Made by a program: the position numbers and the translations under genes
Notes under the pieces: generated by a model
What the model saw: the letters and a program-made list of their open reading frames with translations, nothing else
The model's database searches: none
Told to the model about the DNA's origin: nothing
Source of the DNA: an uncultured Pseudomonadota bacterium
GTDB lineage: Bacteria > Pseudomonadota > Alphaproteobacteria > Rs-D84
Direction: 5' to 3'
Length of the DNA stretch: 64,000 nt
Assembly: GCA_902762295.1 (NCBI GenBank)
Contig: CACWNX010000001.1
Location: 596,094 to 660,093, forward strand
Part shown: positions 11,538 through 63,703 of the stretch, in pieces
How positions within the stretch are numbered: the first letter of the stretch is position 1
Layout of the letters: the number at the start of each line of letters is the position of its first letter

Positions 11538-11757
11538 GTAAAAACACCGCACAAGGCGATGTTTTTATTTTTATCCTGGCGCACCCAGAAGGATTGTTCG
11601 CGTTGCTCACCACACGTAAGACTCGAACTTCATTTCATTCGTTCTCGTCAACTATCGTGTCGAACCAGGGTTCGCATCCCCGTTGTTCCAACGGTAAAAA
11701 CAAAAACACCGCACAAGGCGATGTTTTTATTTTTATCCTGGCGCACCCAGAAGGATT
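11538..11757. repeat. direct repeat (~56 bp, copies at 11538-11595 and 11700-11757) bracketing a 103-bp insert at the 3' end of tRNA-Arg(ACG)
   Basis: Identical strings aaaaacaccgcacaaggcgatgtttttatttttatcctggcgcacccagaaggatt at both positions. The repeat equals the tRNA 3' terminus (T-loop to CCA) plus its downstream flank. Confidence 0.85.
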
Positions 11758-11815
11758 CGAACCCTCAGTCTTCTGATCCGTAGTCAGACGCTTTATCCAG
11801 TTGAGCTATGGGTGC
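11739..11815 (-). tRNA. tRNA-Arg (anticodon ACG)
   Basis: Acceptor GCACCCA/TGGGTGC, anticodon loop CTACGGA, T-loop TTCGAAT, encoded CCA. Confidence 0.9.
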
Positions 11816-11863
11816 AACGCGTATTATTCTATACCAAAATATTGCGATTGCAAGAAAAATTAT

Positions 11864-12826
11864 TTACATGCTTTCTAATCGGCGGATTCGTTCTGCAATT
11901 GGTGGGTGCGTCGCCAGTATTTTCGACATAAATGCACGTGCGCGACCCGGGTTCGCAATGCAAATATGTGCCATCGCACTTTGTGTTGCAATCGTTTGAA
12001 CATGTGAATTGCCCGATATTTTTCGCAGTGCATCGGCCAATGCACGTGGATTACGCGTAATCATTGCACCCGTTGCATCGGCGGCATATTCACGCCGCCG
12101 CGAAATTGCCATACGCAACACCGGGGTTATAATCAGGTTAAATACCGTGAATGCCAACCATACCATTAACAGCACCGCACCGGTATTATTTTTTTCATCA
12201 CTGTGGTGATTTGTGTATGTAATGTTTCGCAAAATCGTATTTGCAATAAATACCGTCACACCAACACCCGTAATTACCAACATATCCAGTCTAATATCAC
12301 GATTACCAATATGTGCCATTTCGTGTGCAATTACACCTTCTAGTTCGGGTTGACTAAGTTTTTCAATAATTCCACGGGTCAGGGCGATTGTCGCATCACG
12401 TGGCCCGCGTCCCGTTGCAAATGCGTTTAAATGTGAATCCGAAATAACATATACGCGCGGGGTTGGCAGCCCTGCGGCCAGTGCAACATTTTCAACCGAT
12501 TTATAGATATATTTGTAATCTGGGTCGCCTTCATTTATTTGTTTTGCCCCCGCCATATTCAGCATCATTGAATCACCAAAAACCCATGAAATTATCATCC
12601 ATATAACACATACTATACCGGTTGGAATTGCAACCGATACCGCCGTATTCAACGCGTCATTTGCCGGCATAATAATCCAAGTAAACAAAAACACCAATGC
12701 GATAAATATAATCGGAAACAGAATAACCAGTACAGCGGTCTTAATATTGTTTTCGCGAATATGGTCATAAACAGTCTTGATTCTTTTCATGCAAAAAATG
12801 GTATTAGAAAAAAATATTTCCTGCAA
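11864..12826 (-). CDS. htpX: membrane zinc metalloprotease HtpX
   Basis: HEMAHIGNRD (HExxH) between TM segments; M48 family architecture. Confidence 0.85.
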   Translation of the reverse strand: MQEIFFSNTIFCMKRIKTVYDHIRENNIKTAVLVILFPIIFIALVFLFTWIIMPANDALNTAVSVAIPTGIVCVIWMIISWVFGDSMMLNMAGAKQINEGDPDYKYIYKSVENVALAAGLPTPRVYVISDSHLNAFATGRGPRDATIALTRGIIEKLSQPELEGVIAHEMAHIGNRDIRLDMLVITGVGVTVFIANTILRNITYTNHHSDEKNNTGAVLLMVWLAFTVFNLIITPVLRMAISRRREYAADATGAMITRNPRALADALRKISGNSHVQTIATQSAMAHICIANPGRARAFMSKILATHPPIAERIRRLESM

Positions 12827-12865
12827 GATATTTTATTTATTACAAATATATGATAAAATAGTCTT

Positions 12866-13756
12866 ATGAGAATGTCAGGAATTTTTTTTGTTATTATGCT
12901 GATATATGCGCCGGCATTGGCGGGGTTCTTGGAACCAACATCATTTCCAACGGTTGTTTCGGATATGTCGTTTATTGACCGAATGGCGTTGTTGGCATCG
13001 GGGTATGAACAATTTGAATCAGAATATGATGCGGATGGAAACTGTATATCCGGCTGCAGTTATGCCGCCCCAAAACTGGAAGACGAAATTGCCGCAATGG
13101 AACGATGGAACGCGTTGGTGAAACATGAATTGGTTGAAGAATATAACTATACAGAAAATATTGATGGTTCATTGACACCATCATCCCAAATTACTTTTAA
13201 TACCAAACCGTCAATAACTTCTGTATCACAAACACAATTTCCATCACAAAATCCTGTGCCCGCAAATGTTGTTGATAATGCAAATTGTGCGATACGCGCG
13301 GCATCGTTTGGTGACCGTACGATTCCGTTTGGCAGTCCACTTGGCTATGTTTCGTGTATATCATCACCATATGGGGTTAAACGAAATCTGTTCGGAAATA
13401 CTCACATTCACTATGGTATGGATTTGCGAGCGAAAACTGGGACCCCGGTATATGCACCTGCATCGGGTACTGTGACGGTTGTAATGTTAGGAAATGCAAC
13501 ATGTGGTAATGGAATAGTTATTAAACACGCAAACGGATATTCAACCAAGTATTGTCATTTTAGTGCGGTTGCGGTGACCCGCGGTCAACAGGTTTTGGCC
13601 GGATGCATGATTGGACGCGTTGGCAATACTGGGCAAAGTACCGGACCACACCTGCATTACGCGGTGTATAAGGATGGTGGCACAACCAGTAAACATAGTG
13701 TTGATCCAAAATATTTTATTGAGCCCGAAAACCAGTGTTGCCCTGGTAAGTGTTAG
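12866..13756 (+). CDS. M23 (LytM-type) peptidoglycan endopeptidase, secreted
   Basis: Signal peptide. C-terminal HxxxD...HxH arrangement (HIHYGMD ... GPHLHYAV). Confidence 0.8.
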   Translation: MRMSGIFFVIMLIYAPALAGFLEPTSFPTVVSDMSFIDRMALLASGYEQFESEYDADGNCISGCSYAAPKLEDEIAAMERWNALVKHELVEEYNYTENIDGSLTPSSQITFNTKPSITSVSQTQFPSQNPVPANVVDNANCAIRAASFGDRTIPFGSPLGYVSCISSPYGVKRNLFGNTHIHYGMDLRAKTGTPVYAPASGTVTVVMLGNATCGNGIVIKHANGYSTKYCHFSAVAVTRGQQVLAGCMIGRVGNTGQSTGPHLHYAVYKDGGTTSKHSVDPKYFIEPENQCCPGKC

Positions 13757-14147
13757 AAATATTTTTACGGAATTTGACGGCAAAACTGCCGTTGTTGATT
13801 GGATTGTATGACACAATATATGGTGCCAAGATGCTGTCGCGAACCCATTCTTGAAATTTAATTTTTAATATACCACTTGCGCCGGTGATAATTGTTGCCG
13901 TTTTTGTACCAGATTTTGCCAGATCCATAATTTCAGTCCATGCCTGTTCAATGGTATGCATGTGCAAGTCCAGTATTGCATGCGATGGAACACGAACCGG
14001 ATGCGGAATGCGTTGCGACAAATGCAATTCACCCCGCACCCGTTTGCGAATATCATCATTATTTGGCGCAAATTCTGCCCCAATCATTTCAGCAATATCT
14101 TGGTCGGTCAATTTTCGCATATTTATTTTTCCAGTTTTTTTGTCCAA
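13716..14147 (-). CDS. Smr-domain protein
   Basis: LDLHMHTIEQAW...IITGASG resembles the Smr (MutS2 C-terminal) nuclease-domain core. Overlaps the bamD 3' end by about 25 nt. Confidence 0.55.
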   Translation of the reverse strand: MDKKTGKINMRKLTDQDIAEMIGAEFAPNNDDIRKRVRGELHLSQRIPHPVRVPSHAILDLHMHTIEQAWTEIMDLAKSGTKTATIITGASGILKIKFQEWVRDSILAPYIVSYNPINNGSFAVKFRKNISNTYQGNTGFRAQ

Positions 14148-14848
14148 TCATTGTCTGGAAAATTCAGTTTTAGCATTTCTGCATAACCCGCCGCCTGTTC
14201 TGGGAAACCAATTGCGGTATAGGCCTGGGTCAAACGATAAATTGCTTCGGGTGTCATAACGGTTTCTTGGGCATCGGTCACAACGGATTGCAGTTTTGTA
14301 ATCGCACTTGCCCAGTTTTCTTTGCGCATATCAACGCGTGCCGAATACATTACTTTTCCGGCGATATAGTTTTTCAATATTGTAATCTTGTTTTTTGCAT
14401 TTTTTGCATAAGACGATTTCGGAAAACGATCAACTAATTGTTGGAACTGTTGCAGGGCATAGACCGACATACCCGGTTCACGACGAACATCGCTTACCTG
14501 GCGATAATAACACATTCCACGCAGATACAGCATATATGGAACATCTTTGTGCCCGGGGTGAAAGCGCATAAATCGGTCAACGGTCAATATTGCACCGGCA
14601 AAATCGTTATCCAAGTATTGTGAATACGCCGCCATAATCAACGCATCGGCGGCCCATGGACTTGCCGGGTATTGGGTTTCAACGGTTAAAAACTTTTCGG
14701 CGGCATCATCATAGTCTTTATCTTCAAATTCGGCATATGCCGTGTCAAAAAGATTGTCAATTGGTTCGTATGGAACAATTTTCTGGGAATCTTCGGCACA
14801 GCCTGCAAGGATTGTGCCAGTTAAACAAATTAAAAATATTTTTTTCAT
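14123..14848 (-). CDS. bamD: outer-membrane assembly lipoprotein BamD (YfiO), TPR-containing
   Basis: Lipobox LAGC after a signal peptide; TPR-like repeats. Start set at ATG 14848 (MKKIFLICLTG...), which has an AGGA SD; the ORF-track start at 14920 lacks one. Confidence 0.75.
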   Translation of the reverse strand: MKKIFLICLTGTILAGCAEDSQKIVPYEPIDNLFDTAYAEFEDKDYDDAAEKFLTVETQYPASPWAADALIMAAYSQYLDNDFAGAILTVDRFMRFHPGHKDVPYMLYLRGMCYYRQVSDVRREPGMSVYALQQFQQLVDRFPKSSYAKNAKNKITILKNYIAGKVMYSARVDMRKENWASAITKLQSVVTDAQETVMTPEAIYRLTQAYTAIGFPEQAAGYAEMLKLNFPDNDWTKKLEK

Positions 14849-14902
14849 TTCTTTATATTCCTGTCTTGATTTTGTTTCTCTGGGTCTAGTATAATCCAAA
14901 CT

Positions 14903-16366
14903 ATGAAACTTGGCAAACATATTTTCGGGGTCGGCCTGATGACCGGTATAAGTCGCATATTCGGATTTGTTCGTGATATGCTTATTGCGCGTGTGTTGGG
15001 CGCAGGACGACTTTCCGATATATTTTTGGCGGCATTTAAATTGCCGAATCTGTTTCGTGATTTATTGGGCGAGGGCGCATTATCGGTTATTTTTATTCCA
15101 ATGTATACCGATTGCAAAAAGGATGAATCTTTTGCCAAAAATGTGTTTTCATGGTTGATTGTGGTGTTGCTTGGTATCACATTGGTCTTTGAAATATTTA
15201 TGCCGTTGATTGTATGGGGTCTGGCACCCGGATTTTCCGAGGTTCCCGGTAAAATGGAATTAACCGTTATTATATCGCGTATAATGTTTTTTTATGTGAT
15301 TTTTGTGTGTGCGGCGGCATTTTTATCGGCGATTCTGAATGCTTTTTCGCGTTTTATGTTGGCGGCATTTATGCCGGTTATGTTGAATATTATGCTGATT
15401 TTGGCATTGGTTGCATCTATGCATTTGGGTGTATCAGATACTGTTCTTTACATTATGGCGGGAACGGTGGTTCTGTCTGGGATAATCCAGTGTATCGTGC
15501 TTTGGCTGCGAATTCGGCATAAACATTTTGGATTGCATTTGGTCATTCCGCGTTGGACAAATGGAATCAAGACGATGTTTAAACGTCTTGGGGTAAGTAT
15601 TATTGGTAATGGTTTCTATCAGATAACAATCATACTGGGTACATTGGTGGCAAGTTTTGAAAGCGGTGCAGTTTCGTGGTTGTATTATTCTGACCGCATT
15701 GTCCAGTTGCCATTTGCGATGATTGGTTTGGCGGTTGGGACGGTTTTGATGTCGTCCATATCAAATGCGCTTTCGGAAAAAAATATGCGCAGTGTTTATA
15801 TCCAGCAAAATTCGTCTATGCGCCAATCTATGATGTTGATAATGCCGTGTGTGGCGGGTTTGTTTGTATTGGCGGAACCAATTATCAAGTATTTGTTTGA
15901 ATATGGTGCATGGACTGCGCATTCTACACACGCGGTTGCGGTTGCAATTATGATTCAGATTTTTGTTTTGCCTGTGATGTTAATAAGTCAGATTTATAGC
16001 AAGACTCTTTACGCATCCCAGGATGTAAAAACACCGGTTAAAACCAGTATGATTTCACTGGGGGTTGCATCGGTAATATATGTTGGTTTGTTCTGGTTTG
16101 TTGGATATCTGGCAATACCAATTGGAATTGTAATCAGTGGTTATGTCAAAAATTACTTGCTGGGGCGGGCATGCCGCCGGCGCGGACTGATTAAACCGGA
16201 TGGTCGAACAATTCGTGCAATGGTTGTATTTGGATTGTTGTCGGCAATATTGGGTTTGGGGCTTTGGTTTATCCCGATAACCAGTGTTTTCACACTCGGT
16301 TTGGCAATCGTCGGATTTGGAATTGTGTATTTACCTGTTGCGTTTTTATTGAATCGAAAAATATAA
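14903..16366 (+). CDS. murJ: lipid II flippase MurJ (MviN)
   Basis: MKLGKHIFGVGLMTGISRIFGFVRDMLIARVLGAG...: canonical MurJ N-terminus; about 14 TM segments. Confidence 0.9.
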   Translation: MKLGKHIFGVGLMTGISRIFGFVRDMLIARVLGAGRLSDIFLAAFKLPNLFRDLLGEGALSVIFIPMYTDCKKDESFAKNVFSWLIVVLLGITLVFEIFMPLIVWGLAPGFSEVPGKMELTVIISRIMFFYVIFVCAAAFLSAILNAFSRFMLAAFMPVMLNIMLILALVASMHLGVSDTVLYIMAGTVVLSGIIQCIVLWLRIRHKHFGLHLVIPRWTNGIKTMFKRLGVSIIGNGFYQITIILGTLVASFESGAVSWLYYSDRIVQLPFAMIGLAVGTVLMSSISNALSEKNMRSVYIQQNSSMRQSMMLIMPCVAGLFVLAEPIIKYLFEYGAWTAHSTHAVAVAIMIQIFVLPVMLISQIYSKTLYASQDVKTPVKTSMISLGVASVIYVGLFWFVGYLAIPIGIVISGYVKNYLLGRACRRRGLIKPDGRTIRAMVVFGLLSAILGLGLWFIPITSVFTLGLAIVGFGIVYLPVAFLLNRKI

Positions 16367-16434
16367 TTAAAAAAAGTTGAAAGACGACTTTTTATGTGAT
16401 ACAATATCCTTATAAGAATGTAAGGAGTCCTTAA

Positions 16435-17307
16435 ATGAAAAAATTAGTATCTTTTACGGTTTTGGCTGCATTGCTTGGCGGCTGTATTGAAACGACACCG
16501 ACAACATCGGAATATGGTTCGGATGGTTTCGGCGAAGAAACACTGGCCACCGAAAGTTTTAATGACACATATCTGATGGCACCGGCACCGCGCTACTATA
16601 TTGGTAATGCGTACAAAGTGGAAGATGTTCAATATATTCCAACCGAAGATTTTACATATAATCAGACCGGTATGGCGGGTATAATTCCGTCCGAATTGAA
16701 TGGTACAAAAACCAGTAACGGCGAAACATACGACATGAATCAAATGGCCGCAACCAGCAAGACTTTGCCATTGCCAACAATTGCCAAGGTCACAAACCTG
16801 GAAAATGGGGAAAGTGTGGTTGTTCGTGTGAATAATCGTGGCCCGTTTGTGAATACTCGTATTATGGATTTGTCTGTGGCGGCGGCCCAGAAAATTGGTT
16901 TGACCAACCAAACCAGGGTTCAGATTCAGGTTCTGCCTGAACAGTCATTGGCGGTAAAGAATGCAACACTGGGCAAAACCGAACAAGTGACCGCAACCGA
17001 AGAAGTTGTTGTCGCGCAACCGACACCAGAGCCGGCACCCGCCCCGGTCCAGGTTGTACCCCAAGGGGGTGAATACAGTGTCCAGGTCGCGGCATTCTAT
17101 GCCGAAGACAGTGCCGATGCATTGGTCGCCCGTCTGCGTAACTATGGCAATGCAACCGTTGTCAAAGAAGGTGACATGTATAAGGTTCGCATTGTTAACC
17201 TGAATGCGTCCGAAGCGCGTCGCGTGATTGACAGCCTGCGCAGTAATGAAGGTATGGCGCCGGGACTGTTAAAGAACGGTCGTTGGGTCAACGCGGACAG
17301 CATTTAA
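16435..17307 (+). CDS. rlpA: septal ring lytic transglycosylase RlpA-like lipoprotein with C-terminal SPOR domain
   Basis: Lipobox LGGC. DPBB fold region (GETYDMNQMAA...VVVRVNNRGPF). Pro-rich linker. C-terminal SPOR-like EYSVQVAAFYAEDSADALVARLRNYG. Confidence 0.75.
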   Translation: MKKLVSFTVLAALLGGCIETTPTTSEYGSDGFGEETLATESFNDTYLMAPAPRYYIGNAYKVEDVQYIPTEDFTYNQTGMAGIIPSELNGTKTSNGETYDMNQMAATSKTLPLPTIAKVTNLENGESVVVRVNNRGPFVNTRIMDLSVAAAQKIGLTNQTRVQIQVLPEQSLAVKNATLGKTEQVTATEEVVVAQPTPEPAPAPVQVVPQGGEYSVQVAAFYAEDSADALVARLRNYGNATVVKEGDMYKVRIVNLNASEARRVIDSLRSNEGMAPGLLKNGRWVNADSI

Positions 17308-17324
17308 TAATCTAATAGTTTACT

Positions 17325-17352
17325 AAAAAAAATCCCCGCAAAACGCGGGGAT
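17325..17352. terminator. bidirectional intrinsic terminator between convergent rlpA and dCMP deaminase genes
   Basis: aaaaaatccccgcaaaacgcggggattatttattt: hairpin flanked by A/T runs on both sides. Confidence 0.6.
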
Positions 17353-17355
17353 TAT

Positions 17356-17853: not shown

Positions 17854-17942
17854 ACGAACTCCTTTTAGCCGAATCTACAATAAATTAGGGATTTTTCAAG
17901 TTTTTTGTTCACTTTTGAAATTTGTGTGCTATTGTTTACGAC

Positions 17943-18836: not shown

Positions 18837-18847
18837 AGGGTAAAAAA

Positions 18848-23624: not shown

Positions 23625-23885
23625 TTTCAAAGTACTTCGGCAACAAAAGTTGCCTCGCCTCGCAACCCTTCGGGTTCTCGCCCCTTTGCCGACAAAATTA
23701 AAAACCGACCTAACGGACGGTTTTAAAATTTTGGTGCGAGCAAAGTACTTCGGTGGCATACGCCACCTCGCCTCGCAACCCTTCGGGTTCTCGCCCCTTT
23801 GCCGACAAAATTAAAAACCGACCTAACGCCCTTTGCCGACAAAATTAAAAACCGACCTAACGGACGGTTTTAAAATTTTGGTGCG
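23625..23885. repeat. tandem ~120/140-bp repeat units ending in duplicated tRNA-Gly 3' terminus, between guaC start and tRNA-Gly
   Basis: Unit caaagtacttcgg...ctcgcctcgcaacccttcgggttctcgcccctttgccgacaaaattaaaaaccgacctaacggacggttttaaaattttggtgcgagcaaag occurs twice (23625-23744 and 23745-23885). The second unit has an extra internal 34-bp duplication. The last 25 bp equal the tRNA-Gly 3' end plus flank. Confidence 0.85.
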
Positions 23886-23955
23886 AGCAAAGGGGCTCGA
23901 ACCCTCGACCTCAACCTTGGCAAGGTTGCGCTCTAGCCAACTGAGCTACGCTCGC
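23879..23955 (-). tRNA. tRNA-Gly (anticodon GCC)
   Basis: Acceptor GCGAGCG/TGCTCGC, anticodon loop TTGCCAA, T-loop TTCGAGC, encoded CCA. Confidence 0.9.
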
Positions 23956-35397: not shown

Positions 35398-35473
35398 GGG
35401 GCTATAGCTCAGTTGGTAGAGCAAATGACTTTTAATCATTGGGTCCAGGGTTCGAGTCCCTGTGGCCCCACCA
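35398..35473 (+). tRNA. tRNA-Lys (anticodon TTT)
   Basis: Acceptor GGGGCTA/TGGCCCC, anticodon loop CTTTTAA, T-loop TTCGAGT, encoded CCA. Confidence 0.9.
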
Positions 35474-35676
35474 AAAATCAAAACCGACCTTGTGTCGGTT
35501 TTTGTTTTTTGATTGGGAAAACAAGACGAGAACCCGTGGGTTCGACACGATAGTTGGTGAAAACAAGCCTTGGCGCAGTTTGAACCTTACGAGTGGAAGG
35601 GTCCCAACACGCAGTGTTGGGATGTGCAATCCCTGTGGCCCCACCAAAAATCAAAACCGACCTTGTGTCGGTTTTT
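35458..35676. repeat. direct repeat (46 bp, copies at 35458-35503 and 35631-35676) bracketing a ~125-bp insert downstream of tRNA-Lys
   Basis: ccctgtggccccaccaaaaatcaaaaccgaccttgtgtcggttttt twice: the tRNA 3' terminus plus its terminator hairpin. The second copy is preceded by gggtcc, which matches the tRNA variable loop. Confidence 0.85.
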
Positions 35677-36385
35677 ATTTTTTATTTTCGTTTTTTATCG
35701 GTGGTGGCGCAACCTGGGTCAACATCTGGTCAAAATTCTTAGAAATTTCGGCGGTTGAATCCAGCCAATCGGTTATTTCGTCTATAATATTTCGTATATG
35801 GCGCGCAATTACGCGCCGACCACCCCCAAGGTGATGCGTGCCAACCAGTCGCGACATATCACGTGTTAGTTCCGTCATTATGCGCATTTGTTCCGGCGAA
35901 AAAACATTTTCCTTTGCGTACCCCAGAATAAGATTTTCCAGTTCTTCGTAATATTGGTGCAGTAAATTCATATTGTCCATTCGCAACGACAATTCGCGTG
36001 CAATGTGCGCCTCGGAAAGGGCGCGCATAGAATTTACAGCACCGCGTGTCAGCCGCCCACGCATCTTTATCATCTTGCGCAGAATAATCAGCGTATGCAA
36101 CATAATCGTATTGATTTTATCGGTCATGCCATTAATCAGGGTTTCTTGCAATCGTCGCGACACCCGGTTTGTCGTGTAATCGTAAAGCAAAAACACCAGC
36201 GGTATCGCCAACAATGATGCGGAAATATTGCTAATCAAACCTTCAACTGCCGGGTCCCGGACATTGTCCAATGATACCGAAAACAGAACAATTCCGCCGG
36301 CGATGGATATTGCATACGGCAAAGTTTTCAGCAAAAAATTACGAATTTTGTTTCTCATGGCATAAATTTTGCCAAAAATACCCAC
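35675..36385 (-). CDS. hypothetical membrane-anchored protein (236 aa)
   Basis: Two N-terminal TM helices, then a soluble helical region. No motif recognised. Confidence 0.45.
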   Translation of the reverse strand: MGIFGKIYAMRNKIRNFLLKTLPYAISIAGGIVLFSVSLDNVRDPAVEGLISNISASLLAIPLVFLLYDYTTNRVSRRLQETLINGMTDKINTIMLHTLIILRKMIKMRGRLTRGAVNSMRALSEAHIARELSLRMDNMNLLHQYYEELENLILGYAKENVFSPEQMRIMTELTRDMSRLVGTHHLGGGRRVIARHIRNIIDEITDWLDSTAEISKNFDQMLTQVAPPPIKNENKK

Positions 36386-46820: not shown

Positions 46821-48089
46821 ATGTCTGAAATTGTTCCTATTTTAAGTGATGTCCAGAAAATTGCGTTTGACACGATTGAACGCACTAATTCAAATGTGCT
46901 TATCTTGGGTCAGGCGGGAACCGGCAAGTCAACATTTATAAACTATATTAAATCTGCTACGAAAAAGCGCGTTGTTTGCGCGTGTCCAACGGCGGTCGCG
47001 GCGCTTAATATTGGTGGTGCAACAATCCATTCGTTGTTCAGAATTCTGCCACGCGACTTTATATTTCCGGAATTCTTGGAATTACATGCCAAGGTTCGTA
47101 ATATTTTGACCGCGACCGATGTTTTGATTTTGGACGAAGTTTCAATGATTGCTCCCGATTTGATGGATGCAATGGATATATTGGCGCGTCGCGCGCGCAA
47201 GAATGATGCGCCGTTTGGCGGAATCCAGGTTGTTGCAATCGGCGATTTGTTTCAATTACCACCGGTTATAACACGCGATGCAACCAAATATTATGAATCT
47301 GAATATGGACATAGCAAATCGTATTTCTTTGACAGTCATGTTTACCCGCGTATAAATTTTATACGATTCAATTTTGATTTGGTTTATCGTCAAAGTGATA
47401 TTGAATTATTGGAAAAATTGACCGCGCTGCGAACCGGCAATATGAACGCCCTGGGGTTCTTTAATGCATGTAAAATATCTGATAATGAACGATATAAAAA
47501 TGCGGTTTTGATAACACCTTTTCGCGCGGTGGCCGATCGGGTAAATATGGAACGACTGGGACAAATTGATGCGCCTGTTGTTTCGTATGTTGGGGAATTG
47601 TCGGGCAATTTTTCCGAACGTGATGTACCGGCACCGATGAATTTAGAACTAAAGGTTGGTGCGTTGGTTGTGTTTGTTAAAAACGGTGACCGGTGGCACA
47701 ACGGTTCAATGGGTGTTGTGCAAAGCATGACATCGCGTGAAATAATTGTTCAATTACTGAATCGTGAACGCGATATCGTCGTTGTAAAACCCGAAAAGTG
47801 GCAGAAAATTGAATATTCGCGTGATGAGAATGACCGATTGGTTGAAAATGAAATTGGCGCATATAAGCAGTTTCCGCTTGCATTAGGCTATGCGATGACC
47901 ATACATAAATCCCAGGGCAAAACACTGGATTCGGTAATTGTTGATATATCGCGTGGCGCGTTCGAGCATGGTCAAACCTATGTTGCACTTTCACGCACGC
48001 GTTCTGCCAACGATATGCATATTGCCCGACCACTTTCCATGCGAGATGTAATCTTTGACCCGCGGGTGCTGGGATTTGTGGGCGAGTAA
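46821..48089 (+). CDS. Pif1-family (RecD-like SF1B) DNA helicase
   Basis: Walker A GQAGTGKST, Pif1 motifs (DEVSMI, GDLFQLPPV, ...TIHKSQG...). About 420 aa; no N-terminal accessory domain. Confidence 0.8.
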   Translation: MSEIVPILSDVQKIAFDTIERTNSNVLILGQAGTGKSTFINYIKSATKKRVVCACPTAVAALNIGGATIHSLFRILPRDFIFPEFLELHAKVRNILTATDVLILDEVSMIAPDLMDAMDILARRARKNDAPFGGIQVVAIGDLFQLPPVITRDATKYYESEYGHSKSYFFDSHVYPRINFIRFNFDLVYRQSDIELLEKLTALRTGNMNALGFFNACKISDNERYKNAVLITPFRAVADRVNMERLGQIDAPVVSYVGELSGNFSERDVPAPMNLELKVGALVVFVKNGDRWHNGSMGVVQSMTSREIIVQLLNRERDIVVVKPEKWQKIEYSRDENDRLVENEIGAYKQFPLALGYAMTIHKSQGKTLDSVIVDISRGAFEHGQTYVALSRTRSANDMHIARPLSMRDVIFDPRVLGFVGE

Positions 48090-51513: not shown

Positions 51514-51640
51514 TTTATTACCTTTTTGTTCCTGTTATGTTTCATATATTATATTCCGGGTTTCTGGTGCCAGGCACCCGGCGGCCCCGCAAAAAAGCTG
51601 AACAGATATAATCAACAATCGCCAATTATATCAAACCTAA

Positions 51641-53669
<2,029 letters not shown>

Positions 53670-55465: not shown

Positions 55466-55474
55466 CTATAAAAA

Positions 55475-55663
55475 TGGCGCACCCGGCGCGATTCCCTCGG
55501 GCAAATGTCCTGCGGGGCATTCGTTAGCGCTTGAACTTCGTTTTACTCGTTCTCGCTTACTCATTGTCGAACGCGACGCGTTCAAATCGCGGGGCGCACA
55601 GCAATAAATTCAAATCATCATTGCGGGATAATTTAAATTTATTGGCGCACCCGGCGCGATTCG
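55475..55663. repeat. 20-bp duplication of the tRNA-Arg(CCG) 3' terminus (55475-55494 and 55644-55663) bracketing a ~149-bp insert
   Basis: tggcgcacccggcgcgattc occurs twice. The insert contains a T-arm-like gcgttcaaatcgcggggcgca and a tcgttctcg...gtcgaac segment resembling the Arg(ACG) and Lys inserts. Confidence 0.8.
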
Positions 55664-55719
55664 AACGCGCAATCCCCGCCTTCGGAGGGCGGTGCTCTAT
55701 CCAGTTAAGCCACGGGTGC
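55644..55719 (-). tRNA. tRNA-Arg (anticodon CCG)
   Basis: Acceptor GCACCCG/CGGGTGC, anticodon loop CTCCGAA, T-loop TTCGAAT, encoded CCA. Confidence 0.9.
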
Positions 55720-56217: not shown

Positions 56218-56247
56218 ACAACAAACAAAAAACAATGGGGGGAATCC

Positions 56248-57174: not shown

Positions 57175-57206
57175 GTGTTTAGTTATCAAACAATCGTCAC
57201 TCCGTT

Positions 57207-57232
57207 GAAAAACGGGGCATTTGCCCCGTTTT
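57207..57232. terminator. bidirectional intrinsic terminator
   Basis: aaaacggggcatttgccccgtttt. Confidence 0.65.
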
Positions 57233-57253
57233 ACTAACCAGTAACACTAACCA

Positions 57254-57973: not shown

Positions 57974-57976
57974 TTT

Positions 57977-59048
57977 TTAACCCCTTTGTAATAAACTTAT
58001 CATGAACCCATCTAAATCGCCGTCCAGAACGGCATCTGAATCTGTGTTTTCAAATCCGGTGCGTACATCTTTGACCAAGCGGTACGGGTACAGGACATAG
58101 TTTCGTATTTGGCTGCCCCATTCAATTTTCTTTTGTGCGGCCTTGGCGGCATCTTCGGCGGCGGCGCGTTTCTGCATTTCTAATTCATACAGCCGCGACC
58201 GCAACATCTTCATCGCCATATCTTTGTTTTGAAATTGACTGCGTTCGTTTTGACATGTGACAACAATACCGGTTGGAATATGGGTGATGCGGACGGCGCT
58301 GTCGGTTTTATTAACATGTTGACCACCGGCACCCGATGAACGATAGGTATCAATTCGTAAATCTTTTTCATTTATATCAATTTGAATAGAATCATCAACA
58401 TCTGGCCATACATCAACCGATGCAAAACTGGTCTGGCGTTTACCATTGGCATTAAATGGTGAAATGCGAACAAGGCGATGAACACCAATTTCGTTTCGTA
58501 ACCATCCATACGCACGTTCGCCAATAATTCGCATAGTAATACTTTTAATTCCGGCGGTATCGCCAATGTGTTCTTCAATAATTTCTACGGTAAAGTTATG
58601 TCGTTCCGCCCATCGCGCATACATCCGCGCCAGCATTTGCGCCCAGTCCTGGGCCTCGGTCCCGCCGGCACCCGCCTGGATAAATAAAAACGCATTGTTT
58701 TCATCCGCCGGATTATTGAACAGTGTAATATATTTCGCATTTTGAACACGCGCCGCCAATTTTTCAATTGCAGAAACTATATCTTTATCATCTGGCGCCA
58801 ACGAATAAAGTTCGTTCAGGTTGTTATATTCGTCATTCATTGAATTAAATTCTTTTAACTCACGCTCCATAGCGGATTTTCGTTGCATAACTGCGCGCGC
58901 ATTATCGGGATTATCCCATAAATCAGGTGCCAATGACTGCTGTGTGATTTCGGCAATTCGTTCCTGTAATTTATCGGGGTCAAAGAAACCCCCGAATTGC
59001 AATCAGGTTATCAGATATTTCGTTCAAAACTTCATTGACTAATATCAT
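57977..59048 (-). CDS. prfB: peptide chain release factor 2, with programmed +1 ribosomal frameshift
   Basis: Frame 1 reads MILVNEVLNEISDNLIAIRGFL, then TGA at 58982-58980, within CGG GGG TTT CTT TGA C (internal SD plus the CTT TGA C shift site). The +1 frame continues DPDKLQERIAEITQQ... through the GGQ-containing RF2 body (SGAGGQHVNKTDSAVRITH). Confidence 0.9.
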
Positions 59049-59148
59049 ATTTTGTATAATATCATAATTTTTTTCAAAATCAACAATAAAACAAATGTTG
59101 CCTTTCGGTTTTATCTGTGATAAAATAATGCCTAAGAGAGAGGTTTCA

Positions 59149-60384
59149 ATGAAACATATTTTCAATACTGTTGGTGCGGTGTGTTTGTGTATGACAACCG
59201 GTGCGGCGTGTGCCGTGTCGGCGGGAACGGTTGCAAATAATACGGCGCGTGGCATAAACCCAAATACCCAAATTAGCAATGCAAATCTGCGTGGGAACCA
59301 GGCACTGGCCAATGCATATGTGACAAACCAACGCAATACCTACTATATGGTGAATGTTCCAGATGTGGACAGTGCATGTCGCACAAAAATTATGAAATGT
59401 TTTACCGATTATTGTGGTGATATAACGGTTGTCCCGGGTCAGGTATCTGGTCGTTGTGCCTATGCAACCGAAAGCGAATTGTATAACTATGCGATGTTGT
59501 GCCTGCGTAATGACACATCGGTATTGTTGCCCCAGTATAATACAAATACAAAAATGGGTGTTGGGGGGCTGAATACTGCGGCGCATTTGTGCCCATCGTA
59601 TGTCCAGCAAGAACTTATGGCATATTTATCTATGGCGAATATGGCGAATGAATTGACCAAGGCACATTCGCCCCAGTGTCTGGAACGTCGCCAGGAATTA
59701 GAGGCTGCGTTGTCGTGTCATTCGGTTGCGTTGGCATATGGCAATGAAACATCCAGTATGCTGATGTCCCAGTTGACCGATTATTGTGGCGCAGGCGTGC
59801 CGGGCGGTTCGGCGGAAATGGTGTCGCGATTTGCAAATGCCGGTAATGTTGGTGCAAATATATGGGGCTGGGCGGAAAAAATCGTCAGTTTGGATTTGAA
59901 TAAAAAGGCATCAGATTGGGAAACGGCGGTTGATGCGGTATTGGCATCGTATACCAATCGTATGAATTTGGCATGTGGCGACGATATGAAATTAAATACT
60001 GTGCCACATACATCATCAACGGGAACGCCCGCCCTGCAAACCGCGGCGGCAATCGCAACCGGAATCGCGTTCCCCGATGCACAAAAAAAAACTAGCGATA
60101 CCCCAAATGTCAGTCTTTATATGGATGTGACATCTCATTACGAGATATACGATTATGCAACCGCAAACCAGGTTGTCCAGGCAGGATTGTCTAATTCGCC
60201 ATTGACCCAAAATGCATTTTTAACATCGTCACAAATGGATGATATGCAGACCGCATACAAGCGCGGAACAAAATTATTTGTTATCCGTGATACTGCGCGT
60301 TGTTTTTTGGTGCCGGTTGCCGATATGACGACATCTGAAAAATCTATGTTGGCGCAACAGTTTAGTACATGTATCTATAAATAA
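59149..60384 (+). CDS. secreted Cys-rich hypothetical protein (~412 aa)
   Basis: GAGAGAGG SD before ATG 59149. Signal peptide MKHIFNTVGAVCLCMTTGAACA. Multiple Cys pairs (CRTKIMKCFTDYCGD, CAYATESELYNYAMLC). No enzymatic motif. Confidence 0.55.
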   Translation: MKHIFNTVGAVCLCMTTGAACAVSAGTVANNTARGINPNTQISNANLRGNQALANAYVTNQRNTYYMVNVPDVDSACRTKIMKCFTDYCGDITVVPGQVSGRCAYATESELYNYAMLCLRNDTSVLLPQYNTNTKMGVGGLNTAAHLCPSYVQQELMAYLSMANMANELTKAHSPQCLERRQELEAALSCHSVALAYGNETSSMLMSQLTDYCGAGVPGGSAEMVSRFANAGNVGANIWGWAEKIVSLDLNKKASDWETAVDAVLASYTNRMNLACGDDMKLNTVPHTSSTGTPALQTAAAIATGIAFPDAQKKTSDTPNVSLYMDVTSHYEIYDYATANQVVQAGLSNSPLTQNAFLTSSQMDDMQTAYKRGTKLFVIRDTARCFLVPVADMTTSEKSMLAQQFSTCIYK

Positions 60385-60460
60385 TAAAACAGTTTTATAA
60401 TACCGCGCGCCCGTTTTTTCTTTTGAAAACGGGTGTGTTTTTTGATATAATACCTGTGCT

Positions 60461-61618
60461 ATGAGAATATCGCGTCGGAATCTTTTGCAAATTACGGGCG
60501 TTGGAATTGTTATTGCGGGGCTTTTGCCGCGTATGGCGTTTGCTGCGCGTAATTCATTGAAGTCTATGCGCACCGGGGTCCAGCCGAATGGTAAAACACG
60601 TCTTGTAATTGAAACGGCAAACCGCCCGTCATATACATTGGTTTACGGTGAAAATACATTGACGGTTAAGTTATCAAATACGCACGGGGACAAATCTGTA
60701 AATGCAAAGTTGGCATCGGGCACATTGGTAAAATCTATAAGTCAAACCCAAGTAGGCGATTCACTGAATATTGTTGCAGATTTAAAAAAACATGTCGCCG
60801 ATATTCCAAAGAATCAAATTATGATTTTAGAACCAAATGGTGATAATGATTATCGGTTGGTTCTGGATTTTGTGGCGGGAACATCGGGGACCAAGGCAAC
60901 GGCAAAAAACGAAAATGATAATGCAACTAAATCTGCAACAAAGAAGCATATAATTGTTGTTGATGCGGGACATGGTGGCAAGGACCCAGGCTGTATTGGA
61001 CGTGGCGGAACAAAAGAAAAAACGATTGTTTTATCGGTTGCACGCAAATTGCGTAATGCATTGCAATCTGCGGGTTTTGGTGTATATTTAACGCGAAATG
61101 ATGATACATATTTAAAATTGAATGAACGTTCTGCGATTGGTGAAAAACGACGCGCAGATTTGTTCTTGTCAATTCACGCGAATGCGAACCCAAGTCGTGC
61201 AATGAAAGGATTTTCTATTTATACATTGTCCGAAAAGGCATCTGACGAAGAGGCACAAAAACTTGCAGATGCCGAAAATGCAGCGGACAAGATCGATGTT
61301 TCTGGGTTTGAAAGTTTTTCCAAAGATATTCGTATCGCCTTATCATCACTGCAACAACACGCCGTTGCAGAAATGTCCGAAGAATATGCAAATGGTTGCG
61401 CACGTGCGTTTAATCGCGCAGGAATAGAGCAACAGCCTGGACCTGCGGTTCGTCATGCGCCATTGGCAGTACTGCGTTCGACTGTGCCGGGTGCGCTGAT
61501 TGAATGCGGGCATTTATCAAATTCAGCCGAAGAAAAATTACTGAAAAGTTCTGCGCACCAGGATAAATTAGTCGCGGCAATTGTAAAATCTGTAAAAAAT
61601 TATGATTTTGAGGCATAA
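60461..61618 (+). CDS. amiC: N-acetylmuramoyl-L-alanine amidase AmiC-like (Tat signal, AMIN domain, Amidase_3 domain)
   Basis: Twin-arginine signal SRRNLLQITGVGIVIAGLLPRMAFA. AMIN-type N-domain. Catalytic domain begins IIVVDAGHGGKDPG. Confidence 0.85.
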   Translation: MRISRRNLLQITGVGIVIAGLLPRMAFAARNSLKSMRTGVQPNGKTRLVIETANRPSYTLVYGENTLTVKLSNTHGDKSVNAKLASGTLVKSISQTQVGDSLNIVADLKKHVADIPKNQIMILEPNGDNDYRLVLDFVAGTSGTKATAKNENDNATKSATKKHIIVVDAGHGGKDPGCIGRGGTKEKTIVLSVARKLRNALQSAGFGVYLTRNDDTYLKLNERSAIGEKRRADLFLSIHANANPSRAMKGFSIYTLSEKASDEEAQKLADAENAADKIDVSGFESFSKDIRIALSSLQQHAVAEMSEEYANGCARAFNRAGIEQQPGPAVRHAPLAVLRSTVPGALIECGHLSNSAEEKLLKSSAHQDKLVAAIVKSVKNYDFEA

Positions 61619-61865
61619 AATCAAAAAATCCGCGATTGCGGATTTTTAACATTTTAATCTGGCGGAGATAGGTTTCTGTCCTTGATAAACAATAATCAAA
61701 ATCTATAAAAATCTTGTTCCGGCGATTTTTATGATTTTTCTAATTGTTCATCTGCGTATTGTGCGCTGCGTTCTGTGGGACTCGCACACATCCCCCTATC
61801 TCCTTGGTTAAAATCAAAAAATCCGCGATTGCGGATTTTTAACATTTTAATCTGGCGGAGATAGG
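61617..61865. repeat. 56-bp direct repeat (61617-61672 and 61810-61865) bracketing a 137-bp insert downstream of tRNA-Ser
   Basis: aaaatcaaaaaatccgcgattgcggatttttaacattttaatctggcggagatagg twice: the tRNA 3' end plus its terminator hairpin. The insert ends in ccccctatctcc, an inverted copy of the tRNA acceptor/T-stem. Confidence 0.85.
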
Positions 61866-61943
61866 GGGATTCGAACCCTCGATACAGTTTCCTGTATACG
61901 CGATTTCGAGTCGCGCGCATTCAACCAGCTCTGCCATATCTCC
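61853..61943 (-). tRNA. tRNA-Ser (anticodon CGA), long variable arm
   Basis: GGAGATA acceptor, anticodon loop CTCGAAA, extended variable arm, T-loop TTCGAAT, encoded CCA. Confidence 0.9.
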
Positions 61944-62071
61944 GGTGCCGGCATTATACACAACCTAAGATGTTTTGCAAGGTGAAAGTTCAAAATGTTA
62001 TATATTTTAGGTCGTTTGACTTTCTTGGAAAAATTTTATATTGTTAACACTAAGAAACAGGTGTTTATATA

Positions 62072-62416
62072 ATGTCCGGATTCTATAACGATGTTTATAA
62101 AATTGTAGAAAAAATTCCATATGGGCGTGTCGCCACATTTGGTCAAATTGCGTGTATGATTGGGCGACCGCGTATGGCGCGTTTCGTTGGATATGCATCA
62201 AATAATAAAAAGTATTGGCATCTGCCGTGGCATCGCGTAGTTTTTCGCGATGGAACACTGATTGGCGAACCGTATCGTGATATGCAGTACCGAACTCTGA
62301 AATCCGAAGGCGTAAATTTTACACACGACCGGCGCGTAAAATTACCCGATTTTCAGTGGCATCCCGAAAGCGAAACGGCCCCCGCAGATATTCGCGATTG
62401 GCCGTTAAAGTTTTAG
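62072..62416 (+). CDS. alkyltransferase-like (ATL) protein: MGMT DNA-binding domain with Trp replacing the active-site Cys
   Basis: MGMT C-domain helix-turn-helix (GRVATFGQIACMIGRPRMARFVG); the active-site PCHRV is replaced by PWHRVV. Confidence 0.7.
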   Translation: MSGFYNDVYKIVEKIPYGRVATFGQIACMIGRPRMARFVGYASNNKKYWHLPWHRVVFRDGTLIGEPYRDMQYRTLKSEGVNFTHDRRVKLPDFQWHPESETAPADIRDWPLKF

Positions 62417-63177
62417 TTTTTTCGCCTGGATCTCTTTTTTTCGCCAGTAATGTATTTTTGATGTGTGATTTTATCAAGAATCATTTCCGGACTGATATGT
62501 TTAAACATTAAAAACCAATTGCGCCCGCCTGTGGTCTTGGCCCGAACGCGTGCGCGCGCATCGGCAACTGTGTTTGGTGCCGGCACAATAACATCATCGC
62601 CTGGAATCCATTCGGCCGGGGTTGCAACACGAAATGCATCGGATGTCTGCAACGCAATCAGCACGCGTTTAATTTCGGTGATATTGCGCCCAACCGCTTT
62701 TGGATAATAGAGTATTGTTCGCACAATTCCACGTGGGTCAATTATAAAGACTGCGCGAATCGTGTCTGTATTGCCCGATGCATCATGAATCATTCCGTAT
62801 TTATGTGCGACCATTCCGGTATTATCGGCGATAATTGGGAACATAATTTCCATGTTTTTCCATCCTGAAAAGACAACATCATTCTGAATCGCCTGAATCC
62901 AGGCGATATGTGATGCATTTGAATCAACCGATAATCCCAACAGTTCTGTGTTTAATGCCCGAAATTCATCGTACATAGATTGAAATGTCATAAATTCGGT
63001 TGTACAGACCGGCGTAAAATCACCGGGGTGCGAAAAGAATACAACCCATTTGCCGCGATAATCGTGCGGAAAGTTGATATATCCATTGGTAGAATTTGCG
63101 CCAAATTCTGGGGCCATTTCACCGATATTCGGCATATGGTTGCATTTGTAGTCGGCATCGTTGTTAAAATCATTCAT
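62413..63177 (-). CDS. 1-Cys peroxiredoxin (Prx6-type) with basic C-terminal tail
   Basis: FTPVCTTE peroxidatic-Cys motif; no resolving Cys in the usual 2-Cys position. GGGAG SD before ATG 63177. Confidence 0.85.
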   Translation of the reverse strand: MNDFNNDADYKCNHMPNIGEMAPEFGANSTNGYINFPHDYRGKWVVFFSHPGDFTPVCTTEFMTFQSMYDEFRALNTELLGLSVDSNASHIAWIQAIQNDVVFSGWKNMEIMFPIIADNTGMVAHKYGMIHDASGNTDTIRAVFIIDPRGIVRTILYYPKAVGRNITEIKRVLIALQTSDAFRVATPAEWIPGDDVIVPAPNTVADARARVRAKTTGGRNWFLMFKHISPEMILDKITHQKYITGEKKRSRRKN

Positions 63178-63447
63178 AGAAAGCTCCCTTGGTTATATAA
63201 GTTGATGCATTATACCAAAGATATTTATATGTGTCCCCAAGACTGATTTCTTATGGTGTCACAGGAATCGCAAAATCAAATCATGCACAGTTAATATTTT
63301 ACTATTACAACCAAACAAGGTATGTTTTCTTTCTGTCGCGTTTCAAGGCATAATTCAGACGGATACTCTTCATACAAACGTTCAGATAATAAAACAATTT
63401 TTCAATTATAATAATAAAAATACCCCACGACTATGGGACAAATAACC

Positions 63448-63643
63448 GCTTTTTTATAATGGGACGGATGACCGGATTGTTTCACCAATATTGTCCCATT
63501 TGCTTTCGCAAACCGGCGCACTTCCGTTCGCCTTGGGTCAATATTTCGAACCGGCTGCTTCGCCGGTTCAAACCCGAACATTCACGATTATAAAAAATCG
63601 CCCCAAATGGGACGCTTTTTTATAATGGGGCGGATGACCGGAT
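63448..63643. repeat. ~31-bp duplication of the tRNA-His 3' end plus flank (63448-63478 and 63613-63643) bracketing a ~134-bp insert
   Basis: gcttttttataatggg(a/g)cggatgaccggatt twice. The insert contains the tRNA-like fragment cagccggttcgaaatattgacc (compare the His T-arm gccggttcgaatccggtc). Confidence 0.8.
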
Positions 63644-63703
63644 TCGAACCGGCGACATTCGGTACCACAAACCGACGCTCTAACCAGCTGAGCTACATCC
63701 GCC
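63626..63703 (-). tRNA. tRNA-His (anticodon GTG) with encoded G-1
   Basis: Extra 5' G pairing with C73 (the His identity element). Anticodon loop TTGTGGT. T-loop TTCGAAT. Encoded CCA. Confidence 0.85.

Follow-up and report, generated by a model that had tools for sequence, protein, structure and literature searches.

Background

Genes for tRNAs are classic landing sites for genomic islands and prophages, and to our knowledge all of the players described at these sites bring a recombinase. Here we describe a family of short inserts that lie behind six tRNA genes (Arg-ACG, Gly-GCC, Lys-TTT, Arg-CCG, Ser-CGA, and His-GTG) within a stretch of 64,000 nucleotides, hereafter the window, of contig CACWNX010000001.1 from an uncultured alphaproteobacterium of the Rs-D84 lineage (assembly GCA_902762295.1). 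The minimal inserts are 75-190 nt long, contain no open reading frame (ORF), and follow a common unit plan, in which a reverse complement of the local tRNA running from position 59 outward (the inverted arm) is followed by a conserved core and by a direct copy of tRNA positions ~58/66-76, often extended by the trailer and terminator.

Among the described systems, tRNA-associated islands, tycheposons, and integrase-less derivatives of the cis-mobilizable element (CIME) type resemble the inserts in that they integrate into the 3' portion of a tRNA gene, restore the tRNA themselves, and leave partial tRNA copies as direct repeats. Tandem accretion at tRNA sites is reported for tycheposons, where only integrase-bearing elements are described (bioRxiv 10.1101/2020.12.28.424599). 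Those elements are kilobases long and encode tyrosine or serine recombinases, whereas the present units are non-coding in their 75-190 nt and combine an inverted copy of the target with a covarying core that is common to many tRNA specificities. Of the features by which tRNA-targeting elements are recognized, we found direct repeats next to an intact tRNA and polymorphism between close relatives; no recombinase gene was detected in the cargo-bearing units, in the 54 loci collected, or among 20 window ORFs.

Integron cassettes and their attC sites are similar in that promoter-less units without their own recombinase are arrayed at one entry point, that the unit ends in an imperfect inverted repeat with a strand-specific fold, that cargo lies between a remnant of the entry site and the folded site, and that empty or near-empty units occur. 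In contrast to integrons, the entry points here are the 3' ends of many tRNA genes and not an attI site beside intI, no RYYYAAC/GTTRRRY boxes are present (the junctions read ...GGAU/G and ...AAU/CC or RAGG(n)/CC), the arms copy the target tRNA, a conserved three-helix core takes the place of the bulged attC hairpin of free sequence, and no IntI-like gene was found in the 54 loci. The XerCD-dependent integrative mobile elements exploiting Xer (IMEX) of the CTXphi type also lack their own integrase, and two inverted target-like sequences ~100 nt apart mimic a duplex target in a single strand, an arrangement which the inserts resemble; CTXphi, however, is a 7-kb phage genome that targets dif, and no dif-like site was found here.

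REPINs are likewise ~100-nt non-coding intergenic hairpins, and they are moved in trans by a single-copy enzyme (RAYT, an IS200/IS605-like transposase) that acts on single-stranded hairpins; unlike the present units, they occur as hundreds of dispersed copies of fixed sequence that are not tied to tRNAs and neither copy nor duplicate their target. Leaving aside chance matches in coding sequence, the copies described here are located 3' of a tRNA or else, with no tRNA in view, at the end of a short contig, and no RAYT-like ORF was seen among the loci examined. Class C group II introns also insert directly 3' of intrinsic terminator hairpins, which are read as single-stranded structures, but they are six-domain ribozymes of at least 600 nt with a fixed 5' GUGYG, whereas the core of the inserts has ~110 nt and a freely varying first helix (GUGUGC, GCGCCA, CGGUCA) and gives no Rfam match to a group II intron. 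TRIMs and retrozymes present the same order of direct repeat, complement of the tRNA 3' end from position 59, non-coding interior, purine run, and direct repeat. These elements are eukaryotic, nothing lies between their long terminal repeat (LTR) and primer-binding site (PBS), and the latter includes the CCA complement, a feature not found in the 46 copies of the core class that we call type B (see below). We know of no bacterial LTR element.

A search of the whole window with Rfam 15 at the gathering threshold returned only tRNAs and the transfer-messenger RNA (tmRNA), a permissive search of two inserts gave chance-level overlaps only, and no description of such elements was found in the literature, by topic or by sequence string. 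The inserts lack at least one of the tested defining features of each of the closest known systems, and we file them with the tRNA-site integrative elements. An earlier reading of this DNA, made from the sequence only, had likewise been able to assign them to no described class.

Results and discussion

Anatomy of the inserts at six tRNA genes

All six loci show the same order on the tRNA strand, with an intact tRNA including CCA, an A-rich trailer and terminator hairpin, an insert of 75-130 nt, and a second tRNA 3' end (Table 1). The inserts are members of one modular superfamily, with shorter or divergent members carrying the same arms at Gly and His. This architecture, proposed for the six named tRNAs by the sequence-only reading, is borne out at each of them by both sequence inspection and a repeat finder, and the similarity between the inserts goes far beyond chance; a miniature protein-less family with att-like geometry at tRNA 3' ends is real. 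The ten tRNA genes counted at that time are nine tRNA genes (ARAGORN) and a two-piece tmRNA. The direct repeats run from the T-loop or T-stem of the tRNA through CCA, and the longest of them (64 nt, 100% identity) is that at Gly. A duplication of the terminator together with the tRNA 3' end, which had been claimed for all six loci, does not hold for every one of them; no terminator copy is present at Arg-CCG, the His copy takes in only the first 13 nt of trailer, and the last Gly unit ends in CTTTG only and not in a full tRNA 3' end.

The 18-mer GGTTCGACACGATAGTTG occurs exactly twice in the window, at 11649-11666 (-) in the Arg-ACG insert and at 35539-35556 (+) in the Lys insert, against a chance expectation of 0.06 and with two or more matches in 0/100 shuffles. 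The identity of this core segment had been noticed before, with an opposite orientation relative to the tRNAs; since Arg-ACG lies on the minus and Lys on the plus strand, the two 18-mers in fact have the same orientation. The Arg-ACG, Lys, and Arg-CCG inserts are mutually alignable, and their core (type A) follows the plan seen in type B at the Ser locus, namely an inverted arm, G(A/C)GAACC-loop-GGUUCGACA with further hairpins, ...C/AAU/CC, and the 3' copy. The Lys arm begins directly after the U-tract and ends in ..GAC, the complement of G59 U60 C61, which is copied from the real tRNA-Lys. This is not so for the AAU at the downstream copy, which are the element's own bases because tRNA-Lys has AGU there (A58 G59 U60); the crossover therefore lies at or after 60/61. 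At the Gly locus, two 113-nt units stand in tandem, and their apical hairpins differ by compensating changes. Unit a also contains a 34-nt internal duplication (23829-23862, minus strand) of the loop, the 3' half of the terminator, the U-tract, and part of the inverted arm, which looks like slippage on a palindrome.

Positions 59-76 of the tRNA, the trailer, the terminator hairpin, the U-tract, and the inverted arm together make up a long imperfect palindrome centred on the terminator loop. The inserts had been described as not palindromic; this description has to be given up, as the reverse complement of the tRNA 3' end extends the terminator hairpin. The T-arm-like pseudo-tRNA fragments that had been noted are present, but they are not random, being the inverted copy of the adjacent tRNA 3' portion and a conserved GGUUCGA hairpin.

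No promoter inside the inserts passed our scan, and a terminator follows most inserts. A sigma-70-like pair TTGATA-16-TATAAA at 61684-61712 (+), antisense to helix P3 of the Ser core, fails the scan rule and is not counted as a promoter because it is not conserved in the second apical variant of P3; it points to the inverted arm and, in cargo units, to the cargo genes. No further copies of the family were found in the window by nhmmer; a weak match at 5686-5788 was rejected as an extra copy and is an ordinary AT-rich terminator.

Table 1. Coordinates of the tRNA genes, insert parts and tmRNA in the window
Feature	Position	Strand	Basis
tRNA-Arg(ACG), intact	11739..11815	-	ARAGORN, Rfam
Arg-ACG trailer and intrinsic terminator, first copy	11695..11738	-	sequence, repeat finder
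Arg-ACG insert 5' arm, degenerate inverted tRNA 3' end, ends ...GGGGAU (complement of positions 59 onward)	11676..11693	-	sequence; architecture inferred from relatives
Arg-ACG core, type A (GCGAACC..GGUUCGACACGAUAGUUG.. hairpins)	11596..11675	-	alignment
Arg-ACG second copy, tRNA 58-76 (11577-11595) and trailer/terminator (11533-11576)	11533..11595	-	repeat of 63 nt, 97% identity (11533-11595 / 11695-11757)
tRNA-Gly(GCC), intact	23879..23955	-	ARAGORN
Gly unit a, whole	23732..23878	-	the 147 nt missing from the otherwise 100% identical contig L068
Gly unit a, arm GGCAAAGGGGC	23793..23803	-	
Gly unit a, short core with hairpin UGGCGUAUGCCA	23746..23792	-	
Gly unit a, 3' copy CTTTGCTCGCACCA	23732..23745	-	
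Gly unit b, whole, with trailer/terminator copy	23628..23731	-	
Gly unit b, arm	23680..23690	-	
Gly unit b, core with compensated hairpin CAACUUUUGUUG	23633..23679	-	
Gly unit b, CTTTG	23628..23632	-	
tRNA-Lys(TTT), intact	35398..35473	+	ARAGORN
Lys 5' arm TGATTGGGAAAACAAGAC, 18-nt degenerate inverted copy of tRNA-Lys 59-76	35510..35527	+	inspection
Lys core, type A, with the shared 18-mer, ends ..AAU	35528..35629	+	alignment
Lys second copy, tRNA-Lys 61-76 and trailer/terminator	35630..35683	+	repeat of 54 nt, 98% identity
tRNA-Arg(CCG), intact	55643..55719	-	ARAGORN
Arg-CCG insert, arm GTGCGCCCCGCGATT (55585-55599) and type A core (55494-55584)	55494..55599	-	alignment
Arg-CCG second copy, tRNA 58-76 (AATCGCGCCGGGTGCGCCA), without terminator copy	55475..55493	-	repeat finder, about 19-20 nt
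tRNA-Ser(CGA), intact	61853..61943	-	ARAGORN
Ser 5' arm GGAGATAGGGGGAT, exact reverse complement of tRNA-Ser 59-72	61790..61803	-	
Ser core, type B: P2 (GUGUGCG/CGCACA), junction AAUACGCAGAUG, long AU-rich P3, AAGG and purine-rich spacer	61673..61789	-	nhmmer E = 2e-26
Ser second copy, tRNA-Ser 64-76 and trailer/terminator	61616..61672	-	repeat of 57 nt, 100% identity
tRNA-His(GTG), intact	63626..63702	-	ARAGORN
His insert, hairpin of inverted and direct T-arm-like copies (GUUCGGGUUUGAACCGGC / GCCGGUUCGAAAU) and divergent core	63479..63591	-	folding z = -2.8
His second copy, tRNA-His 58-76 with one mismatch, and 13 nt of trailer	63447..63478	-	repeat of 32 nt, 97% identity
tmRNA, two-piece (circularly permuted), alphaproteobacterial	51553..51895	-	Rfam

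Occurrence in relatives and match of the arms to the local tRNA

Public genomes and metagenomes scanned for a core motif of 22 or 25 nt gave 9 and 47 loci; L-numbers denote these and the other loci and contigs compared here. The 25-nt pattern brought up about 58 further copies, all of them in rumen or gut alphaproteobacterial MAGs (metagenome-assembled genomes) and metagenomes. Four loci of the metagenome scan, L018, L042, L057, and L062, were dropped as chance matches within AT-rich coding DNA. The genome matches were all to rumen or gut MAGs (RUG, UBA3635, UBA3760, yak rumen, and red deer). Viral contigs scanned for both core motifs gave zero matches, and thus there is no sign of a phage origin. 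With the four chance matches set aside, most cores lie 77-150 nt 3' of a tRNA on the same strand, and those without a tRNA in view are located at the ends of short contigs. The host tRNAs are Arg-ACG, Tyr-GTA, Ser-CGA/GGA/TGA, Pro-GGG/TGG, and Gln-TTG/CTG (nine isoacceptors), and 13 isoacceptors are occupied when the type A copies of the window are included.

Both arms match the tRNA next to which they stand. For 46 type B copies adjoining 14 distinct tRNA 3' ends, the mean match of the inverted arm was 11.5 nt to the cognate and 5.5 nt to non-cognate tRNAs, and the respective values for the direct copy were 10.7 and 5.0 nt. The key case is L006, where the orthologous Arg-ACG locus holds a Ser-type core in place of the insert seen in the window, and 32 nt of this core are identical to the window copy. 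The arm of L006, GCGCACCCAGAAGGAU, is the exact reverse complement of tRNA-Arg, and its counterpart at the window Ser locus, GGAGAUAGGGGGAU, is the reverse complement of tRNA-Ser. Some 30 nt of the core hardly vary between these hosts, in which the flanking protein is only 57% identical, and the core subtypes, defined by variants of helix P2, are independent of tRNA identity.

In all 46 type B copies, T-loop position 59 is the anchor point of the inverted arm (...GGAU and then a G, which is mismatched with A58); the arm usually extends for 13-14 nt, to position 71-72, and the longest has 17 nt. Behind the core follows a direct tRNA copy from about position 61-66 through CCA. Type A arms extend beyond position 58. 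The palindrome around the terminator loop is perfect in L006 save for a 5-nt insertion, and in L045 and L066 it is in register through CCA. In L022 and L034, an A unit is fused to a B unit and the palindrome between them is lost; an A-type 5' half joined straight to a B module in L012, L049, L063, and L008 may have arisen by the same loss.

Structure of the conserved core

The structural analysis is based on an alignment of 23 distinct minimal type B cores. The consensus comprises three helices, with P2 enclosing an inner hairpin, a near-invariant junction A-AUACGMARAU, a long AU-rich P3 that occurs in two apical variants, and RAGG. For the 21 pairs tested (including one manually added closing pair), 97.5% of 483 cells are paired, against 27-44% in a control with the 3' partners slid by 1-3 columns. 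Changes on both sides were seen in 10 of the 21 pairs, for example CGCCA/UGGCG, GGUCA/UGACC, and GUGUGC/GCACAC, as well as GAUGAAC/GUUUAUC vs AAUACAC/GUGUAUU, and none of 500 shuffles reached the observed covariation score. Fourteen cells hold G.U pairs on the tRNA-sense strand; as these would be A.C on the other strand, it is the sense strand that folds, as RNA or as single-stranded DNA, between which these data do not distinguish. The fold of the core is strand-specific, yet its sequence is also strongly conserved. Folded as a single sequence, the Ser insert reaches z = -5.2; folding of the type A inserts was not significant (z from -0.2 to -1.7), and our structural claims therefore refer to the type B alignment.

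Allelic turnover, arrays and cargo

Strains with an identical peroxiredoxin (window 62413-63177) differ at the flanking Ser and His loci. L066 and L067 are 98-99% identical to the window, and their homology ends exactly at the CCA of tRNA-Ser (61853). They have an extra unit there, with its own terminator (ACCCGCC..GGCGGGT), an inverted arm starting TGGCGGA, and a different core (A'), followed by the 19-nt repeat AATCCCCCTATCTCCGCCA (tRNA 58-76) and then by the native trailer of the window type. Three alleles were found at the His locus, which carry the window core, an A' core (L066), or a deletion that leaves the first hairpin only (L044, L067). Across relatives with flanking-protein identities of 93%, 86%, and 57%, the Arg-ACG locus holds A, A', A with B, or B; over the relatives as a whole, its alleles are A, a hairpin variant of A, A with a B remnant, B, and two Bs. 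At the Gly locus, the window is 147 nt longer than L068 with the sequence otherwise identical. The allele differences between strains of 98-99% identity show recent turnover, as the earlier suggestion of an active or recently active family had implied.

Tandem arrays are present in L032, L045, and L052, and mixed arrays of A followed by B in L014 and L016. The terminator of a unit may be unlike that of the displaced original (L009, L008), and in L008 the tRNA-Pro 3' end is present three times, with a different terminator each time. Deleted or fused alleles are common (L022, L034, L044, L005). Metagenome contigs often end in or beside the units (L002, L003, L011, L015, L065, L066), apparently because short-read assembly is interrupted there by the repeats or by heterogeneity of the population.

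Some units carry 1-8 kb of cargo, which lies between the terminator and the inverted arm and mostly on the strand opposite to the tRNA. Examples are a 169-aa ORF (L008), two ORFs (L059), a 3.6-kb set with Fic/DOC and HNH domains (L049/L037), and possibly 8 kb in L021. The island at 853-3946 of L049, also seen in L037 and L051, is flanked by two units at tRNA-Tyr and encodes, opposite to the tRNA strand, a protein with a Fic/DOC motif (HPFREGNGRTQR) preceded by a small partner, a 410-aa protein whose C-terminus holds an HNH-like motif, and a membrane protein. The right ends of the cargo in L049 (4040-4135) and L070 (200-300) have the repeated motifs GTGCTAAGCAAA, GTCAAGCAAAGGGCAA, GGTCAAAAGGG, and TGGTCAAATGCG in common, immediately ahead of the inverted arm or of the displaced tRNA 3' end; proteins may bind at these motifs.

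Search for a recombinase in cis

Clustering of the ORFs over the 54 loci yielded only syntenic host genes, with no recurrent recombinase family and no intI-like ORF. An integrase was found in none of five cargo islands and in none of the cargo units L008, L021, L049, and L059. A 346-aa reverse transcriptase with motifs typical of diversity-generating retroelements (DGRs; IGNLTSQ and YCDD) is encoded in L021 (9020-10060) and L028 (1614-2654), convergent to a type B core and ending ~7 nt past the tRNA-Ser 3' copy of the latter. It was rejected as a local partner, being confined to one genome among the loci clustered.

Proposed mode of spread and alternative explanations

We tentatively favour the reading that the inserts form one family of non-autonomous integrative cassettes of tRNA 3' ends that are moved in trans, probably as folded single strands. 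Each unit would consist of a replacement tRNA 3' end with its trailer and intrinsic terminator, optional cargo, the inverted arm anchored at position 59, and the three-helix core, and the arm would convert the tRNA 3' end and the terminator into one long hairpin. Entry would take place by recombination within tRNA positions ~58-66 and keep the tRNA intact, with the displaced original 3' end, including its own terminator, landing directly behind the core; repeated entry would generate the arrays. The enzyme that moves the units would be encoded elsewhere and would act on a single strand folded so that pairing of the inverted arm with the copied tRNA end rebuilds a duplex image of the target, and the conserved core would be the handle by which the enzyme recognizes it. 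We infer movement of this kind because the units contain no enzyme, the fold is strand-specific, a duplex image of the target can be formed, and the smallest units (113-190 nt) are too short for duplex circles. The proposed mechanism is modelled on integron attC sites and the CTXphi attP hairpin.

Several points weigh against this cassette model. No recombinase was found at any locus examined, so that movement in trans is assumed, and the matching of both arms to a new tRNA goes beyond any standard site-specific recombination. The trailer and terminator copies are 97-100% identical in four window loci and their identity stops at the U-tract, which suggests a local transcript end that was duplicated rather than a cassette brought in from outside. 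For the innermost bases of the arm (complement of 59-63), the downstream copy offers no partner, and only the real tRNA end can pair with them. The displaced tRNA-Gly 3' end of L070 is adjoined by an island-like segment whose right side is without a core; some of the cargo may have come by ordinary integrase events beside a resident core. The polymorphisms are unit swaps, additions, and deletions, with no clean empty site found in a near-identical strain, and the Gly difference between the window and L068 may be either a strain difference or an assembly collapse of the tandem repeat. Finally, the comparative data comprise only MAG and metagenome contigs that were gathered with a single conserved core motif (a 25-nt pattern).

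The rematching of the arm, the U-tract boundary, and the pairing of the innermost bases are not explained by the cassette model and keep alive another reading, to us a rather unlikely one, in which integration is target-templated or nucleic-acid-guided and a single core can be retargeted to any tRNA, which would be a new targeting principle. In a guided version, the arm (complement of 59-72) would be the guide and pair either with the tRNA itself or with its gene where the sense strand is exposed; in a templated version, it would be copied from the tRNA or pre-tRNA by snap-back or by reverse transcription halting at T-loop position 58.

The maintenance of a sense-strand fold by many compensatory changes is typical of functional RNAs, and it agrees, as does the near-invariance of ~30 core nt between hosts of 57% flanking-protein identity, with the idea that each insert encodes a functional small RNA, which is carried along by the tRNA gene and made by terminator read-through. 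On this account, which we consider unlikely, the core would provide the function, the spread would be by local duplication and homologous exchange, and the arm and downstream 3' copy would form an acceptor-stem-like helix with a free NCCA, matured by RNase P and 3'-end trimming enzymes, with the CCA enzyme or a synthetase possibly involved. The inserts indeed have no internal promoter and most have a terminator behind them, and the arm mostly complements positions 59 to 71-72, which is the exact end of the acceptor stem and leaves NCCA unpaired, as in the Ser helix GGAGAUAGG/CCUAUCUCC with GCCA and the type B helix of Arg-ACG, GCGCCCA/UGGGCGC with GCCA. Many copies, though not every one, allow such a helix; L036, L045, and L058 have a perfect 17-mer arm and lack the downstream acceptor strand, so that the helix is impossible, and the helix of the Gly units leaves a tail of 7 nt. 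Furthermore, an acceptor mimic need not match the neighbouring tRNA, the cores behind opposite-strand cargo have no evident route of transcription, and deleted or fused alleles as frequent as those listed above are unexpected for a needed RNA.

The copy of a retroviral PBS ends at the modified A58, and the fixed position-59 boundary, seen in all copies, invites comparison with a miniature LTR-like retroelement, in which the direct repeats of tRNA 3' end, trailer, and terminator would be LTRs whose right edge is the end of the transcript, the inverted arm directly after the left repeat the PBS, and AAGGAnAGAAA ahead of the right repeat the polypurine tract; read-through transcripts would be copied by a reverse transcriptase encoded at another locus, with homologous recombination bringing in the cDNA. 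The order of repeat, inverted arm, core, purine run, and repeat fits, the repeats are 97-100% identical as in freshly made LTRs, at Arg-ACG, Lys, and Ser they cease to be identical at the U-tract of the terminator, and the whole left part is an imperfect palindrome about the terminator loop, as from snap-back priming (L006, L045, L066). We nevertheless consider this reading very unlikely. Type B arms reach at most the complement of C75 and never A76 in the 46 copies, their usual span of 59-72 would therefore leave the CCA end of a tRNA primer unpaired, and type A arms run beyond position 58; the only arm seen with a full CCA complement is that of the type A' unit of L066. In addition, cargo lies between 'LTR' and 'PBS', where LTR elements carry nothing, the trailers of the left and right repeats are unrelated in L009, L048, L008, and L066, no reverse transcriptase was found in the window and the sole one near an element is the DGR-type enzyme of one genome, and the scheme offers no route to a new tRNA locus. 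Just as improbable, in our judgment, is that the inserts are decayed and immobile CIME-like scars of integrase-borne islands or prophages, with the core an attP arm by the crossover site and the interior deleted. The att-like geometry, the existence of cargo-bearing versions, the frequent deletion derivatives, and the island-like DNA of L070, in which repeated GTCAA/GCAAA motifs adjoin the displaced tRNA-Gly 3' end, are in line with such an origin. Against it, none of the five cargo islands has an integrase, independent deletions would not spare the same 100-130 nt at 13 different tRNAs, double-stranded arm-type sites for protein binding do not evolve by G.U-tolerant compensatory changes, the P2 subtypes are not linked to tRNA identity, and whole units differ between near-identical strains. 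Serial integration and near-complete excision of larger elements, offered by the sequence-only reading as one of two explanations, is unlikely as well, because what stands behind many tRNAs with matched arms is a covarying structured core and not random leftovers.

Genomic setting

The window and an ENA contig of 549 kb are 100% identical apart from the Gly locus. GC skew, considered as a clue to the leading and lagging strands, proved too noisy over 64 kb to be of use. Homologues of a lineage-specific neighbouring protein are confined to metagenomes and MAGs labelled Alphaproteobacteria, and exact-protein look-ups for the neighbours of the Lys and Arg-CCG loci gave no match. The gene set of the window is of the housekeeping kind, including RNase J, MsbA, Tgt, QueA, Obg, Era, and RF-1. 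The window ORFs tested yielded no integrase, transposase, or reverse transcriptase, and none of 20 contained a recombinase domain (the Pfam assignments were housekeeping or unannotated). Inspection of the 3' flanks of Ala-GGC, Ala-TGC, and Met-CAT revealed plain terminators without an insert; a PIF1-like helicase gene (46821-48089, plus strand) is the divergent neighbour of this tRNA-Met. No insert of the tRNA type is present 3' of the tmRNA, whose acceptor piece ends in ...CACCUCCACCA and whose tag reading frame has 11 protein letters.

Conclusions

A folded module of ~100 nt with arms copied from the adjoining tRNA occupies most tRNA genes of a genome, varies from one near-identical strain to another, and is able to carry cargo of a defence type (Fic/DOC, HNH). 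If the units move in trans as folded single strands, the principle known from integrons and CTXphi would extend to tRNA genes, and the family would hint at a recombinase or reverse transcriptase whose target can be programmed. If the templated or guided reading were true, these would be protein-less programmable cassettes of bacteria or the first LTR/PBS-like bacterial retroelement, and not a variant of integrase-borne islands; if the inserts act as RNAs, they would represent a new tRNA-linked RNA class with an acceptor-stem mimic. Either way, the family accounts for the breaking of contigs at the tRNA loci of rumen MAGs, and in an uncultured lineage it singles out these loci as hot spots of gene flux.

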